Shown piece after piece: positions 5,505-34,214 of a DNA stretch of 34,533 nt. The stretch's first letter is position 1. Every line of letters begins with the position of its first letter. The stretch comes from a bacterium. Lineage in GTDB: Bacteria > Zhuqueibacterota > Zhuqueibacteria > Zhuqueibacterales > Zhuqueibacteraceae. Under the pieces are notes generated by a model, which did not search any database, was not told where the DNA came from, and worked only from the letters and a program-made list of their open reading frames with translations. The stretch spans positions 1 through 34,533 of the forward strand of contig JBIOXB010000094.1 of assembly GCA_044869275.1 (NCBI GenBank), given 5' to 3'. The position numbers and the translations under genes were made by a program.

Positions 5505-7643
5505 TCACGTCCCTCTTAAGTCCTCCGCCCCTATCGGCAGGTGCCGAATCCGTTTTCCTGTGATCGCAAAAATCGCATTGGCTACCGCCGGAGCAATGGG
5601 TGGAAGACCAGGCTCGCCGATCCCGCCGGGAGCTTCGTTGCTCTGTATCAAATGTATCTCCACCTGCGGCATGTCCTCCATGCGCGGCATTTGATAATCC
5701 CAAAAGTCCTTTTGCACCACGCCGCCTTTTTCGATGGTGATCGCATTCTTGAGGGCCGCGCTCAGGCCATAGACAATCGCGCCTTCGATCTGTGCCTCGA
5801 TGGTATCGGGATTGACTTGCATGCCGCAATCAACCGCAGCCACCACGCGATGCACTTTCACCCCGGCGTCTTTGTCAATCGAAACTTCCGCGACCTCAGC
5901 GACAAAAGTCTTGAATGAAAGCGAGCAGGCGATGCCGAGGGCATGACCTTTCGGCAGGCGCCTGCCCCAATCCGCCTTGGTCGCAGCAAGCTCCACAACT
6001 TTTTTCATGCGCGGGGATTTATCCAACATCTGCATGCGAAATTGATAAGGATCGGCTTTCGCCAGCGCCGCAAGCTCGTCTATAAAGCTCTCCACCGCAA
6101 AGACATTTTGCGAAGCATACACCGAGCGCCACCATCCCAACGGAACCGCGACGGGCGCCCACACGTAATCGACGAACACATTGGGAATGCGATACGGCAT
6201 TTCAACCGCACACTCCACCGCGCCGCGGTCGAGGCCGTTCTTGGGGCCCTCAGGCTTCGCTTGCGCCGAGATCGAAGGCGCCACCACGCGATGTTGCCAT
6301 GCCGTTAATTCTCCGGCGTCGTTCACCGTTCCTTTGAGTACGTGATGGCTCACCGGGCGATACCAACCGTGCTGCATGTCGTCATCGCGCGTCCATGTCA
6401 CTTTCACCGGCGCATTTATCGCTTTCGAGAGGCTCGCGGCTTCGACCACAAAATCAGATTCCAGTCTGCGCCCGAAAGCGCCGCCCATGAGCGTGATGTG
6501 TACGGTGATGTTTTCAGGTGCAATGCCGAGCGCCGCCGCCACGTCCCGCGGCACATTTTGCGGCGATTGCGTGGGCGCCCAGATTTCGCAGTGCCCGTCA
6601 TGGAAATGCGCGAGGCAATTCATCGGCTCCATTGCAGCTTGCGCGGCGAAAGGCACGTCGTAAACCGTTTCAATTTTTTTCGTCGCTGCCGCGAATACCA
6701 CACCGGCATCCCCTTCTTTTTCCGCCACGGCGCCTTCAGATTTAGATTTCTCGACCAGCATCTGGCGGATGCCGTTACTGTTCAGATTAGCGTTCGCGCC
6801 TTCTTCCCAAGTGATGTCGAGCGCCTCGCGGCCTTTGAGCGCATGCCAGGTGGAATCGGCTACGACAGCGATACCGCTCTCGATCGCAACCACATCTTTG
6901 ACTCCGGGCATGGCCTTCGCTTTCGCCGCCTCGAATTGCGCGGCTTTGCCTCCAAAAACCGGGCAGCGTGCCACGACCGCATAAAACATGTTCGGCACTT
7001 GCATGTCGATGCCATAGTTCGCGCTGCCATCCACTTTTTCGGGCGTGTCGAGTCGCGGCAGGCGCTTGCCGATAATTTTGAAATTTGCGGGGTCCTTCAA
7101 AGGCGCATCTTCCGGCACGGGCAATTGCGCAGCCGTTGTCACAAGCTGGCCATAACGCAATTTTTTGCCGGTGGGCATGTGCATGATCGTGCCGTTTTCT
7201 GCGCGGCACGTCCCTCGCTCATCTCCCCAAGTTTGTGCAGCAGCAGTGATCAGCATTTCACGGGCAATGGCGCCGGCCTTGCGCAGCTTCTCCATGTTGG
7301 TGCGAATACTGGCGCTGCCTCCAGTGCCCATGCGGCCGTATTTTGGATCAAAATCAGGCTGCAGGTACTGCACGGTCGACCAATCAGCTTCCAGTTCTTC
7401 TGCGATGATCATCGGAATCGAAGTGCGCACGCCCTGTCCCATTTCCGATCGGAAAACGGCGATGGTGATGCGATCATCGGGATCGATGCGCAGCCAGGCG
7501 TTGGGTGAAAATGAGCCGGCCTCGGCGGCAGAAGCTTCGTTCTTGTGCTGCGAGGGAAGATGAAAGCCGAGGACAAGTCCTGCGCCGGCGGTGGAGACGA
7601 CTTTAATGAAGTCGCGGCGTGAAAGAGTCGAAGTATTTTGCAT
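5505..7643 (-). CDS. iorB: Xanthine dehydrogenase family molybdopterin-binding subunit (isoquinoline 1-oxidoreductase beta-like), Tat signal
   Basis: LSRRDFIK signal; motifs SEMGQG, TGGSAS, MEPMNC, GGAFGRR, GWWRSV and GGIGEPGLPPIAPAVANAIF. The start is ATG 7643 or TTG 7661. Confidence 0.92.
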   Translation of the reverse strand: MQNTSTLSRRDFIKVVSTAGAGLVLGFHLPSQHKNEASAAEAGSFSPNAWLRIDPDDRITIAVFRSEMGQGVRTSIPMIIAEELEADWSTVQYLQPDFDPKYGRMGTGGSASIRTNMEKLRKAGAIAREMLITAAAQTWGDERGTCRAENGTIMHMPTGKKLRYGQLVTTAAQLPVPEDAPLKDPANFKIIGKRLPRLDTPEKVDGSANYGIDMQVPNMFYAVVARCPVFGGKAAQFEAAKAKAMPGVKDVVAIESGIAVVADSTWHALKGREALDITWEEGANANLNSNGIRQMLVEKSKSEGAVAEKEGDAGVVFAAATKKIETVYDVPFAAQAAMEPMNCLAHFHDGHCEIWAPTQSPQNVPRDVAAALGIAPENITVHITLMGGAFGRRLESDFVVEAASLSKAINAPVKVTWTRDDDMQHGWYRPVSHHVLKGTVNDAGELTAWQHRVVAPSISAQAKPEGPKNGLDRGAVECAVEMPYRIPNVFVDYVWAPVAVPLGWWRSVYASQNVFAVESFIDELAALAKADPYQFRMQMLDKSPRMKKVVELAATKADWGRRLPKGHALGIACSLSFKTFVAEVAEVSIDKDAGVKVHRVVAAVDCGMQVNPDTIEAQIEGAIVYGLSAALKNAITIEKGGVVQKDFWDYQMPRMEDMPQVEIHLIQSNEAPGGIGEPGLPPIAPAVANAIFAITGKRIRHLPIGAEDLRGT

Positions 7644-7655
7644 GTTTTCATCCTT

Positions 7656-7851
7656 ATTCAAAGCCTCTCTCCAATTATTTTTCCTTGATTCTTTCTACTC
7701 CTGAAGGCAAAACACCTGAAAGCTAAGGCAAAATCATTTAATTGCAAAATGATTCAAAGCCTCCCTCTAATTATTTTGCCATCAAATCATTTTGCCTTGA
7801 TTCTTTTTGTTTCTGAACGCAAAACGATTAAGCGCTAAGGTAAAATCGTTT
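7656..7851. repeat. Tandem ~85-100 bp imperfect direct repeat with ATTTTGCC/GGCAAAAT motifs at the 3' flank of the GxxExxY gene
   Basis: ATTCAAAGCCTC...CCTTGATTCTTT...CTGAA.GCAAAAC...GCTAAGG(C/T)AAAATC occurs at 7656-7739 and 7752-7851. The second copy overlaps the GxxExxY stop codon. Confidence 0.8.
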
Positions 7852-8653
7852 TGAATACGATTTTAGCATGGTTAAAATTGATCCATTGAAACGCTCTTAA
7901 TGATGCGAATCGAACAAACTGGCGAAGATGCTTCTCATAAAATGTCTCGCCCTTCGTAATCGATGATATCTTGAAAGCAACCTCTCTGTTAATCATGTGA
8001 CTTTTTTGTGTGCCAAGAAAGTTTGAACCATGTCTGATTTCAATTTTCTTGATAACGTTTTCTTCTCCGCCGCGAAAATGGTAAATGGCTTCGTAAAACA
8101 AGCTGTTGCCAAGAAAAGCGCCCCATTCTCTCACAAGATTTGTCATCAGTTGTTTAAGCCACACACCGTCTTCATCATGATCTTGCCAATCAGAATCGTC
8201 AATGCTGAAAGCGTAGCGTTCCTCCGGGGTTATTTTAGTTGAAACAAAGCGATGTTCCACGGAAGAAGGTTGCATGTTGATAAGTTTTCCGCGTTGCATG
8301 CCAAGCAGAAAAAGATAATTGAGCGCTTGCTTGCGATGCTCTCCACTCAACGCTTGTGCGGATTTCATCTCATAGATCACTGCATTATCAACCAAGACAT
8401 CGACATAATAAGACTTACTGAAATCCTTGTGGGAAACCCGGATGGGAACTTCCGTGGAAACTTTTTCAAAGCCCGCTCTTTGACAACGATCGGCCAGCTC
8501 ATTTTGATAGATCGATTCATTCCAAAATCTGCCCATTTCTCTATGAATCGAAAAGGCCAGTCCCATCACTTTGTAGTCTAGCGAGTGAAAAGCCTCATCT
8601 GAAATCGTCTTAATTTCGACACCATGAGTTATTGGCATGGCTCTCCCCCTCAA
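7835..8653 (-). CDS. GxxExxY family (PD-(D/E)XK-like) protein, long form
   Basis: Motifs AFSIHREMGRFWNESIYQNELA, EVPIRV, YYVDVLVDNAVIYEMKS and HRKQALNYL...GKLINM. Visibly AT-richer than its neighbours. The start may be ATG 8638 after GAGGGGGAG. Confidence 0.88.
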   Translation of the reverse strand: MRGRAMPITHGVEIKTISDEAFHSLDYKVMGLAFSIHREMGRFWNESIYQNELADRCQRAGFEKVSTEVPIRVSHKDFSKSYYVDVLVDNAVIYEMKSAQALSGEHRKQALNYLFLLGMQRGKLINMQPSSVEHRFVSTKITPEERYAFSIDDSDWQDHDEDGVWLKQLMTNLVREWGAFLGNSLFYEAIYHFRGGEENVIKKIEIRHGSNFLGTQKSHMINREVAFKISSITKGETFYEKHLRQFVRFASLRAFQWINFNHAKIVFKTILP

Positions 8654-8740
8654 TCTTCTCCGCTATCAAATGAATTCCAAAACAACGGCTGGGATGGCAT
8701 TGTTTTGAAGTCGTTTTGCCCTCAAATTATTTTGCCATGA

Positions 8741-9226
8741 TTATTTTGCACTGGCCGCGCGATGAATGGCGCGGCGGATGCGATTGTAAGTGCCGCAGCG
8801 GCAGAGATTGTTGCTCATCGCCATGTCAATGTCGGCATCTGTGGGTTTGGGCTTGCGCGCGAGCAGCGCCGCCGCTGCCATGATTTGTCCAGACTGGCAA
8901 TAGCCGCACTGCGGCACGTCTTCGGCGATCCAGGCTTTTTGTAAAGCATGGCTGCGATTCGCCGCAAGCCCTTCGATGGTCGTGATCGTCTTGCCTTGGC
9001 AGTCGCCGACGTGCATTTGGCACGAAATCATCGCTTCGCCGTCGAGAAGAACGGTGCAGGCGCCGCACTGGCCCAGGCCACAGCCGAATTTCGTGCCGGT
9101 AAGGGCGAGCGTGTCCCGCAAGACCCACAGCAGCGGCGTGTCGGGCTCGACCTCGACCGTGCGCTTTTGTTGGTTGATGGTTAGTGTGATAGAAGCCATC
9201 GCAAGATTCACGGGATGAGAATTCAT
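8741..9226 (-). CDS. iorA: (2Fe-2S)-binding small subunit of the molybdo-oxidoreductase (isoquinoline 1-oxidoreductase alpha-like)
   Basis: Motifs [36 protein letters not shown] and NLCRCGTY. Alternative start at 9199. Confidence 0.95.
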
Positions 9227-9457
9227 ACTGTCACCTTGAATTTAGATTCTCCCAATCATGCCATGCCGCTGTTGCGGTCTCTTGGCAAGATTGAGCACCG
9301 TGCTTGTGCGTCACAAGATTCAGACCGTGTGAAAACGCGAAAACGTGTCACCCTGAGCGTAATCGAAGGGTGCTAAGCTCAATAATCAGGCTTCGACTTC
9401 GCTCAGCCTGACTTCGAATCAGACGTTTTCACACAGTCTGATTCTTTCTGCCTGACA
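9224..9457. mobile_element. Degenerate MITE-like element B copy, interrupted by nested element C
   Basis: It begins ACTGTCACCTTGAAT like 15019-15160 and carries the core GCACCGTGCTTGTGC...CACAAGATTC. It resumes as TTTCTGCCTGACA after the insert. The second TIR was not found. Confidence 0.7.
9322..9439. mobile_element. MITE-like element C (118 bp) with target-site duplication
   Basis: TIR AGACCGTGTGAAAACG / CGTTTTCACACAGTCT (15/16), with GATTC duplicated at 9317-9321 and 9440-9444. Internal REP-like palindrome GTCACCCTGAGCG...CGCTCAGCCTGAC. Confidence 0.85.
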
Positions 9458-9482: not shown

Positions 9483-10168
9483 CTACGGATAATACAATGT
9501 TACGCGCTGCGCCGAGAAATCAATTGGCAATTGCTGCAAAATCTCCGTGTACTTTTTCTCGCGATATACTTTTTCAGCCTGCTTGAGCAATGGCACCAGG
9601 CTTTCGTATGTCGTTTCCAGTGGGGAGATTTGCTCATGCGGCCACTTTCTGCCTTGATAATAAGGAAGCAAAAAATCAAGCGCAGCTTTGAGGCTTATGC
9701 CATCCTTCCCCTCGTAGTGCCACAAATCCACGCCCACATGCTGCCCCAAGATCGCCAAATAAAACAAAGCCGTCAAGTTAAAAAGACTGTAACCGAGCGA
9801 TTTCGTGCGCTCCGGGTTTCCGGATTCACCTCGCCGTCTTTTCTGATATAAGGGAGGCCGTCGGGCTTTGCCGGATCCGGCCACCAGTAAGTGCCAAGGT
9901 TATAGAAGTCATGCTTATCACCGCTGGGCGGTGTCATGGTCTTGTGCATGACGGAAAAAGGACCGGCGTGCAGGGCCTTTTCCGCATCCTCGATCAAAGC
10001 CCGGTATGCGTATTGGAAGCGTTCTTGACCTGCGTTTATATAATTCTTCACTATCGCCAGGCTGGAGGCGTCGAGCAAAAAAGTTCGCGGTTGAGAGAAC
10101 ACCACCTCTCCGCCGGCAAAATCGAGCAGAAAGATGCAGAAAACGAAACGTGAGGTTTGAGGTCGCAT
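9483..10168 (-). pseudogene. Alginate lyase family (PF05426-type) gene with a large internal deletion and frameshift
   Basis: The N-terminal part (PPSGDKHDFYNLGTYWWPD...DGLPYIRKDGEVNPE) joins directly, out of frame near 9812, to the C-terminal part (ERTKSLGYSLFNL...GVDLWHY...ALDFLLPY). The central catalytic NNH-type region is absent. Confidence 0.85.
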
Positions 10169-24825: not shown

Positions 24826-25049
24826 GACGTGCCTGTAAGCTCGATCACCGGTTATTATGCTCCAGCTTTCCGAATTTCACTTGCACCGGACGGTTGTATT
24901 CCTGTCAACCTCATTGAAAGGCAAGACTATTATGGGCAAAACCATTAACCTCAGATGAAGCCTTTAGGAGTTTTGCCTGAAATGGTTTTGCCTATTGGGA
25001 ATATTTGAGATTTTGAAACCAGAAAATCTTTGCAAACAGACCAAGTTTT

Positions 25050-25118
25050 TCCCAACGGATAGAAACAACGCAACTGATAAAAGCTTTTCATCCGTTGCGT
25101 TGTTTCGATCCGTTGGGA
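25050..25118. repeat. Near-perfect 29-bp inverted repeat
   Basis: TCCCAACGGATAGAAACAACGCAACTGAT / ATCCGTTGCGTTGTTTCGATCCGTTGGGA (27/29) around the loop AAAAGCTTTTC. Confidence 0.85.
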
Positions 25119-33587: not shown

Positions 33588-34214
33588 TCACGCACGTCCC
33601 TTGCGCTTCTTCAACCATTCCTCGCAATCGCGATGAATATGCACGCCGATTTCACTTTTACCCTGTTTGCGGTAAAGCGGCGACTCGACGGCTTTCTCAA
33701 TCTGGTCGACGATAAATTCCAGGCCGGCGATTTCTTCATCGAGATTCATGACATCGTTCTCGGCCATGAGGATGAGATGGTCGATACCGCTGTGATACAT
33801 CATGACTTGCAAGCGGATGCCTTCATTGGGCGCTGCGGCCATGGCATGTTCGAGAAACTCCTTCTCGACTTCGAGCTGTTGTTTGTGGACTTCCGCGGCG
33901 TCGCGCTGGGCCATTTTGTCGAACAGTTCTTTTTCGTACTCTTGCCAGAGCTCGACACGAACATAATCCTTCTGCTCGCGCTCATTGCTGGGCGAGAGCA
34001 CGCCAAAAGTGCATTCGTCGATGGCACAATCGATCCAATCCACCTCTTTGGCCCGCGGCGACTCACGAAACTGCTCCAACGCCTGCAGCGCCTCGGGATG
34101 ATCGACATGCGCCAGGGTCATGGCGATCTTTTGCAGCTCATCTGTGGAAGTTTGCGAATCATTGAGCTTGGTGATCCACAACTTGAGCTCAGCCGGAGTG
34201 CAGTCTGAATGCAT
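33588..34214 (-). CDS. Hypothetical acidic helical/coiled-coil protein
   Basis: 208-aa ORF with a strong AAGGAGG RBS, host-like codon usage, a HEAT-like start (AMTLAHVDHPEALQALEQF) and a coiled-coil middle. No family recognised. Confidence 0.8.
   Translation of the reverse strand: MHSDCTPAELKLWITKLNDSQTSTDELQKIAMTLAHVDHPEALQALEQFRESPRAKEVDWIDCAIDECTFGVLSPSNEREQKDYVRVELWQEYEKELFDKMAQRDAAEVHKQQLEVEKEFLEHAMAAAPNEGIRLQVMMYHSGIDHLILMAENDVMNLDEEIAGLEFIVDQIEKAVESPLYRKQGKSEIGVHIHRDCEEWLKKRKGRA

Follow-up and report, generated by a model that had tools for sequence, protein, structure and literature searches.

The locus analysed here is best explained, with a probability of roughly 0.55, as a copy of a widespread cassette in which a gene for a two-domain PD-(D/E)XK protein lies between inverted repeat arms, and which probably represents a selfish mobile element encoding a protein that binds its own arms and cuts there. 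This reading is carried by the architecture of the locus, the recurrence of the cassette at unrelated gene junctions, the co-variation of arm with arm and of arm with protein, the abundance of gene-less arm pairs and the selection on the catalytic residues. Since the comparisons described below yielded neither a duplicated target nor a clean empty site, and no joint left by excision, we infer self-mobility, together with binding and cutting by the protein, from these patterns. A sequence-only reading of the same DNA had proposed a minimal mobile unit. This proposal holds insofar as the gene occurs with its repeats at many unrelated junctions and gene-less repeat copies are scattered, whereas its picture of direct repeats and an empty site had to be abandoned.

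Architecture of the locus

The features are compiled in Table 1. The window is the whole stretch of DNA that was analysed (34,533 nucleotides); G000 designates the source assembly of 6.67 Mb, G001, G007, G016 and G021 are related genomes, and L-numbers denote individual loci. The nuclease gene and both host genes lie on the minus strand, and along the coding strand the order is as follows: host stop codon within a repeat unit, two more units, the gene, a worn inverted arm, a palindrome, a duplicate and the start of the next host gene. The gene had been described as separating iorA from iorB. An intact GxxExxY gene between the genes of a [2Fe-2S] and a molybdopterin subunit was indeed found, but for the names iorA and iorB no subunit-specific model passed its cut-off. 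The start of the iorB-like gene was set at the ATG at 7641-7643 by comparison with G001 and G016. The AT-richness noted before was reproduced, with a GC content of approximately 0.40-0.42 for the nuclease gene compared to 0.53 for the window, and a GC3 of 0.43 compared to 0.72 and 0.65 for the neighbours.

Table 1. Coordinates of the cassette, its host genes and a gene-less copy within the window
Feature	Position	Strand	Basis
Tandem PD-(D/E)XK protein gene, 267 aa, ATG start, intact	7835..8638	-	Pfam/NCBIfam scans, predicted model
Left (upstream) arm: three (G)GCAAAA(T/C)nA units aimed at the gene, ~15-16 nt apart	8711..8750	-	
First right arm, worn: one inverted unit past the stop (7819-7829) and unit-like last codons	7819..7851	+	
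Full palindrome of the gene-less type: forward dyad 7769-7798, inverted dyad 7725-7754, 14-nt loop	7725..7798	.	
Worn tandem duplicate of 7752-7851 minus one 16-nt unit	7656..7739	.	
Upstream host gene, [2Fe-2S] subunit, iorA-like	8741..9226	-	
Downstream host gene, Tat-signal molybdopterin subunit, iorB-like	5505..7643 (alternative end 7661)	-	
Converging arms of the same dyad family without a gene, in a different intergenic region of the window	24918..24994	.	

The outermost unit of the left arm, a GCAAAATAA unit, encloses the TAA stop codon (8741-8743) of the iorA-like gene. At the other end, the final codons of the nuclease gene form a full inverted unit in the relatives L130 and L131 and are only unit-like here. 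The inverted motif version noticed earlier near 7727-7753 is real, and the two arms of this palindrome (7725-7754 and 7769-7798) are 87% complementary. Its outer arm is 81% complementary to the left arm across 26 nt and is likely the effective right end of the element. The 23-nt motif described at 7774-7796 and 8714-8736 was recovered as well, with exactly two copies in the whole assembly. In the present copy the gene is intact and the arms are worn, with no sign of recent movement.

Three further observations concern other parts of the window. Another palindromic intergenic repeat, unrelated to the dyad family, lies at 9315-9440, where many contigs pile up. An alginate-lyase-family gene at 9483-10168 (-) is split over two frames, which cover profile positions 1-52 and 218-273 of 275, and looks like an internally deleted remnant. 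A frame of 208 aa at 33588-34214 (-) gave no Pfam match.

A predicted active and a degenerate PD-(D/E)XK half

The protein clearly exceeded the cut-offs of both curated family profiles, with 80.3 bits for TIGR04256 (GxxExxY, cut-off 35) and 81.5 for PF13366 (PDDEXK_3, cut-off 22), and both matches are confined to the N-half (residues ~20-130). The GxxExxY motif reads G-R-F-W-N-E-S-I-Y, and the domain includes E41, E63, D80, E90, K92, Q104 and Y108. Over 95 aligned rows, D80, E90 and K92 (94/95 each), Q104 (94/95) and Y108 (93/95) are conserved. Q104 and Y108 form a QxxxY motif of the RecB-like kind. Among the conserved columns of the alignment, the four-cysteine set of an Fe-S cluster was absent. 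PDDEXK_3 was the only domain in the Pfam scan, in which Y1_Tnp was not found, and the Pfam and NCBIfam scans revealed neither a GIY-YIG domain nor a DDE, Y or S transposase domain.

The structure was modelled from an alignment of 52 homologues, out of 120 listed from 254 found. The predicted model reached a pLDDT of 95.7 and comprises an equal order of helices and strands in both halves. Accordingly, the C-half (approximately residues 145-267) has the same predicted fold, with H214 and F222/K223 among the counterparts of the catalytic positions, while the D..ExK motif is absent. Cas4 SSO0001 was the best Foldseek match of the whole model (E 2.4e-4) and remained so when the C-half was modelled by itself (E 5.7e-3, prob 0.98). 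With VIA-align, many restriction-fold proteins reached Z values of only 7-8, so that the class of fold is clear and the substrate is not fixed by it. At the sequence level, the C-half matched a profile of 25 other GxxExxY domains with an E of 0.008 over 98 in-register columns, and the profile comparison with its own N-half was not significant (E 0.14-0.2). The C-half is probably a duplicated copy of the fold whose sequence signal has become faint.

Compared to the nearest homologue, dN and dS amounted to 0.114/1.63 and 0.152/0.81 for the two halves. More generally, dN lay far below dS in both halves of intact pairs with an estimable dS, where several pairs were saturated and one included a frameshifted copy. 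Judged from these codon comparisons, both halves are under purifying selection. We read the protein as a predicted active domain fused to a catalytically dead one.

Recurrence of the cassette at unrelated junctions

Homologue scans returned 70 loci from species genomes and 80 from metagenomes, in total 150, of which 123 are full length and 94 remained after dereplication (<80% identity). The records include KSB1, Calditrichaceae, Planctomycetota, Verrucomicrobiota and delta-proteobacteria; on viral contigs, none of 218 candidate stretches was confirmed as a homologue. The arm unit has the form CARRAYNAT (CARRAY-type) and is paired at a distance of 15-16 nt to give a dyad. Among the 94 homologues, 72 of 89 upstream flanks contain the dyad aimed at the gene (shuffles 0.7), and 69 of 88 downstream flanks contain it inverted (shuffles 0.6), compared to 16 and 15 of 1094 distant tiles for the upstream and downstream orientation, the pattern having been written after part of the flanks had been viewed.

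Where both flanks were available, inward-pointing arms were found in 54 of 82 homologues, the strict-pattern dyad was absent in 10 and direct copies alone occurred in none. A forward dyad lies downstream in 15 of the 82, each time with an extra palindrome, as here. The two 23-nt copies had been taken as direct repeats bracketing the gene; 7774-7796 turned out to be one arm of the downstream palindrome.

The neighbouring frames of 97 loci, picked mechanically as ORFs, fall into 62 clusters upstream (78 frames) and 60 clusters downstream (76 frames). Cassettes are co-oriented with both neighbours in 49 of 63 cases, and in G000 the two neighbours of 7 of these 49 lie side by side with no dyad between them; another row, in which a gap of 1.3 kb separates the pair, was left out. 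The arm starts within 20 nt of the upstream stop codon in 24 of 45 cases. Some insertion sites are shared, old and fixed, for example in records of the Prosthecobacter group. The data support that the gene and its repeats act as a unit at many unrelated operon junctions. Neither fixed synteny nor a lack of the motif around homologues was found, an outcome that favours the sequence-only reading. Two more homologous cassettes, L055 and L161, lie between small- and large-subunit genes of molybdoenzyme operons, as judged by eye from matching G000 sequences.

Co-variation and specificity of the arms

At variable positions, the left and right arms agree to 0.71 within and to 0.38 between elements (53 elements, 0/2000 permutations), and the repeat period is equal in both arms of 50 of the 53. 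The mismatches between the arms on the transcribed strand were 43 G-U-compatible and 44 incompatible. From this co-variation without an RNA-type G-U bias, the arms look as if they are read as DNA.

A different explanation would be that the arms act as RNA and, by pairing, exclude the gene as a loop from the operon transcript, like ORF-bearing rRNA intervening sequences, so that mobility or tolerance would be RNA-based. The frequent co-orientation with both neighbours, the short distance to the upstream stop codon and a 3' region that folds better than shuffles (z -2.55) would fit such a role. However, besides the absent G-U bias, unit sequence and period are fixed across phyla, which is more than pairing alone requires, and Rfam returned three weak matches far below the gathering scores, with no family near threshold. 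Pairing as RNA is therefore considered improbable.

The identity of the arms climbs from 0.44 to 0.71 with the identity of the proteins (46 elements at different sites, rho 0.37, 0/2000), a trend that shows co-inheritance, not co-evolution. The present dyad was found around none of 13 other GxxExxY genes (17 loci, 3 unmapped and 1 mis-mapped) and around none of 15 in a second set (5 unparsed); these genes bear arms of their own. At the DNA level, the FKTI codons comprise 42 TTC and 23 TTT compared to a background of 612 and 788, and the ACN codons are nearly even.

G000 itself holds 16 GxxExxY matches, many of them broken (C235, C113, C211, C19, C203, C154, C139, C23, C60, C53). Among those listed, own inverted repeat arms were seen, and C139 shows a duplicated gene tail together with an arm.

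Gene-less dyads across genomes

Outside this locus, the looser motif is found as well. In G000 it gave 44 dyads in 36 clusters compared to 1-4 in three shuffles, and a stricter pattern gave 47 dyads in 34 clusters with a control of 1. Four of these 34 clusters lie inside long frames and 30 do not. In a survey of 41 genomes, 33 gene-less dyads were counted in G000 and up to 241 in relatives. The dyad is present in 18 of 18 family relatives (2-241 copies), the reversed control amounting to 0-2 over all 41 genomes. A full-length gene was found in 10 of the 41, and those 10 carry 25-241 dyads. No full-length gene was found in G007 (99% complete), which has 198 dyads, nor in eight other family members with at least 14 dyads, several of these genomes being incomplete.

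The dialect of the resident gene, a T before CA, was counted by eye in 40 of 48 listed dyads of G021 compared to 6 of 100 listed in G007. The palindromes of G021 are bare arm pairs with differing short spacers. Among 40 dyad loci of G001, 10 have a two-sided counterpart in G000, and the dyad is kept in none of these 10. A base-exact empty site was likewise found in none of the 10 comparable pairs, in which the exact ends are unreadable because most spacers have been refilled with other repeats.

If the repeats were operators of an ordinary autoregulated gene, the scattered copies would constitute its regulon. Paired upstream units do resemble a binding site, and the mostly intergenic position of the gene-less copies would suit regulation, but the arms are equally frequent downstream, where they are inverted, the sites are not kept between congeners, and internally deleted gene remnants retain both arms. 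A regulon is thus very improbable.

The iorA-iorB junction in relatives

An orthologous small subunit (84-87% identity) was present only in G001 and G016, so that 3 of 29 genomes of the order have an iorA orthologue. As would be expected of filled and empty alleles, which the sequence-only reading had envisaged, the nuclease gene is missing from both orthologous junctions, whose spacers comprise 179 nt in G001 and 186 nt in G016; the spacers of paralogous pairs (63-72% identity) comprise 10-33 nt. The G016 spacer contains a right-arm dyad in another dialect and the upstream gene of G001 ends in a left-arm-like unit, both of which are possible single-arm relics. In addition, the spacers hold other palindromes, of CGCAAAG type in G016 (L002:1954-2139) and of GATTGAC type in G001 (L003:1322-1500). 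The junction has the appearance of a hotspot at which one repeat has replaced another in series, and its history comprises either an ancestral cassette that decayed twice or repeated hits.

The stretch 7656-7739 had been regarded as an empty copy of the insertion site. The duplication as such is real: 68 of 84 aligned letters agree with 7752-7851, with one 16-nt gap that equals one repeat period. Comparable duplications of arm modules are, however, common in the family (15 of 76 3' flanks and 19 of 83 5' flanks, compared to 1 of 309 control tiles), the one at L028 takes in the tail of the gene too, and the duplicate is absent from both gene-less orthologous junctions. Its likeness to the gene end can be explained by the last codons, which are an inverted unit in close relatives. 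The stretch is an arm-module duplication and not an empty target site.

For 48 elements, the longest shared word at the two ends averaged 4.7 compared to 4.3 in shuffles (shuffle maximum 4.9), i.e. no target-site duplication stood out from the shuffles among copies that are old and have undefined exact ends. In four runs, one of which (X1) may be the source, no excision or empty joint was found at the element ends, including 7796-8714, in the contigs, which drop rare variants. Two joints of one run (7452-8785 and 7505-8763), supported by 21-22 letters, were discounted. In a second sample from the same study, contigs match the left arm and a portion of the 3' region without a single difference.

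These results bear on the idea of a direct-repeat cassette that enters and leaves an att-like site, with 7656-7739 as the empty copy. Both direct copies of 23 nt are genuine, as is the duplicate, but arms pointing inward instead of direct copies alone, the common duplications on both sides, the gene-less junctions that do not resemble the duplicate and the missing joint 7796-8714 largely refute it.

Domain number and repeat period

All groups were analysed by the same procedure, in which the repeat period was taken as the shortest dominant period, and the period was found to differ with the number of domains. One-domain GxxExxY genes showed 7-10 nt in 18 of 26 cases, 16-22 nt (roughly double) in 6 and no period in 2. 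Other two-domain genes showed 15-21 nt in 11 of 11, both of these sets stemming from one class of related genomes and not being independent samples, and the present two-domain subfamily showed 14-16 nt in 80 of 83. The arm span, estimated by eye, is approximately 27 nt in all three groups.

These periods invite a generalisation that is offered tentatively: GxxExxY cassettes could be autonomous elements driven by a lone restriction-fold nuclease, without a strand-transfer enzyme. Their ends would follow a simple code, in which a one-domain protein reads three units about 9 nt apart and a fused two-domain protein (here active plus dead) reads two units 15-18 nt apart, with a similar footprint of about 27 nt, and they could be the source of much of the intergenic palindrome load of these genomes.

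A second dyad family is represented in the window by a gene-less palindrome at 25051-25117, directly behind 24918-24994, with CCAACGGAT-type units 18 nt apart. Units of this type make up the arms in the other two-domain GxxExxY subfamily.

Possible mechanism and the outer motif

If the cassette is a selfish mobile element, the protein would read the arm units as DNA, the one active domain would cut, and the dead domain would widen the footprint, in agreement with a repeat period that is roughly twice as long. Since PD-(D/E)XK enzymes are, to our knowledge, hydrolases and not strand-joining enzymes, joining to a new site would be left to the repair or recombination machinery of the host and might take place at arm copies already present. 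Copies in sense orientation just behind a stop codon would be read from the host operon transcript. Loss of the gene would leave short palindromes, and slippage between units would yield duplications such as 7656-7739 and so amplify the arms.

The clearest multi-copy case is a genome bin that contains six deletion copies (L084, L085, L087, L088, L095, L096) with the same breakpoint after codon 51 and unrelated flanks. Most of them end in an outer 12-nt inverted motif, GTAACTATTCAG, and another mover may have copied them. Exact copies of this motif number 88 in G001, where many lie at the ends of contigs, and 34 in G016, and the motif brackets several unrelated inner repeat types (C137:19315-19444, C149:14511-14631, C197:57677-57809, C151:1154-1384 and C223:177694-177919 in G000; L267, L285, L286). 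Among full genes, it accompanies the left flank in only 3 of 86 cases and the right flank in 4 of 83, and it is absent at the present locus, so that it does not explain the family. It was also not found around 12 listed palindromes of G021. An autonomous partner was not found; two long outer-motif pairs held ordinary-looking genes and, by eye, no transposase-like frame.

These data are relevant for a further explanation, in which the protein recognises the arms without moving them. It would be a resident, SsnA-like site-specific nuclease with a role for the host or in self-maintenance, and the arms would be spread by an enzyme in trans or by host recombination. The outer motif, which brackets this dyad, at least two other repeat types and most same-breakpoint copies, is in favour of such a spread, as are the dyad-rich genome G007 in which no gene was found and the purifying selection at old, fixed sites; SsnA itself cuts near its own repeat and affects transformation of the host (PMC11893778). 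On the other hand, the outer motif is scarce at full genes, no transposase-like frame was recognised by eye within its two long pairs, the dyad was found near none of the six Y1 transposase genes of G000, and the arms follow the protein across unrelated sites. A resident nuclease is therefore considered rather unlikely, and the mobile cassette is retained as the preferred reading.

Comparison with known systems

In its family entry, PDDEXK_3 is recorded as a family of unknown function with multiple transfers (PMC3424549). Among the listed papers that contain the term GxxExxY, in one of which it stands in an annotation remark, no association with repeats was found, and searches of openly accessible full texts yielded no description of repeat-flanked GxxExxY genes. 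The N-half of the present protein passes both curated cut-offs, and the protein of 267 aa differs by its second, catalytically degenerate copy of the fold. A large family of unknown function gains a testable function and a candidate cognate DNA substrate. In addition, the intergenic palindromes that occur by the hundreds in single genomes of poorly known phyla can be given a candidate source. How the protein is seated on DNA is predicted by the way in which the period depends on the number of domains. If it is true that the protein moves the cassette, this would be transposition by a hydrolase alone.

TnsA and XisH work with partner recombinases, and I-Ssp6803I sits in an intron. Together with YhgA/Rpn, they are listed as PD-(D/E)XK precedents in transposition, excision control and homing, with a 17-bp target for the homing endonuclease I-Ssp6803I; their entries, as far as they concern these families, do not describe inverted dyad arms such as those of the present cassette (PMC3424549). 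The Cas4 protein SSO0001 and RecB-like nucleases share the QxxxY motif, whereas the present protein lacks the conserved four-cysteine Fe-S set. Compared to classical IS and MITE elements, terminal inverted repeats are present and a DDE, Y or S transposase is absent. ORF-bearing intervening sequences sit in rRNA genes, whereas the present cassette and its homologues lie between protein genes. Homing endonuclease elements occupy one fixed site with intact empty alleles, in contrast to the approximately 60 neighbour pairs of this family.

The REPtrons and TIRtrons are described as genes (RAYT, TIRYT) bracketed by inverted repeats, with dispersed gene-less dimers and an own repeat for each enzyme subfamily (PMC3733652). 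Here, as in REPtrons, TIRtrons and REPINs, the inverted repeats on either side of the gene also occur as a dispersed family of gene-less copies. However, RAYT and TIRYT belong to the HUH tyrosine transposases, which can break DNA and join it again, and the present protein contains no Y1_Tnp domain.

SsnA, a GIY-YIG enzyme of 94 aa, cuts ssDNA beside a single hairpin, and a mobile-element origin is proposed for the Ssn nucleases with their SRM repeats (PMC11893778). It was by this line of reasoning, from a nuclease gene to the repeat flanking it, that the site-specific ssDNA nucleases of the Ssn group were found. The NTS-ssnA-NTS arrangement, as described there, is alike in that a small nuclease gene lies between its own repeats, with many gene-less copies and co-varying pairs of protein and repeat (PMC11893778). 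In contrast to Ssn, the present fold is PD-(D/E)XK, and the arm is a phased direct dyad that is inverted only relative to the other arm. Because the enzyme fold differs, the cassette is a member of neither NTS-ssnA-NTS nor the REPtrons and TIRtrons. It belongs to an apparently unpublished nuclease-plus-repeat family, to which the present analysis adds a subfamily with one predicted active and one dead domain, the arm sequence that goes with this subfamily, and the relation of the repeat period to the number of domains.
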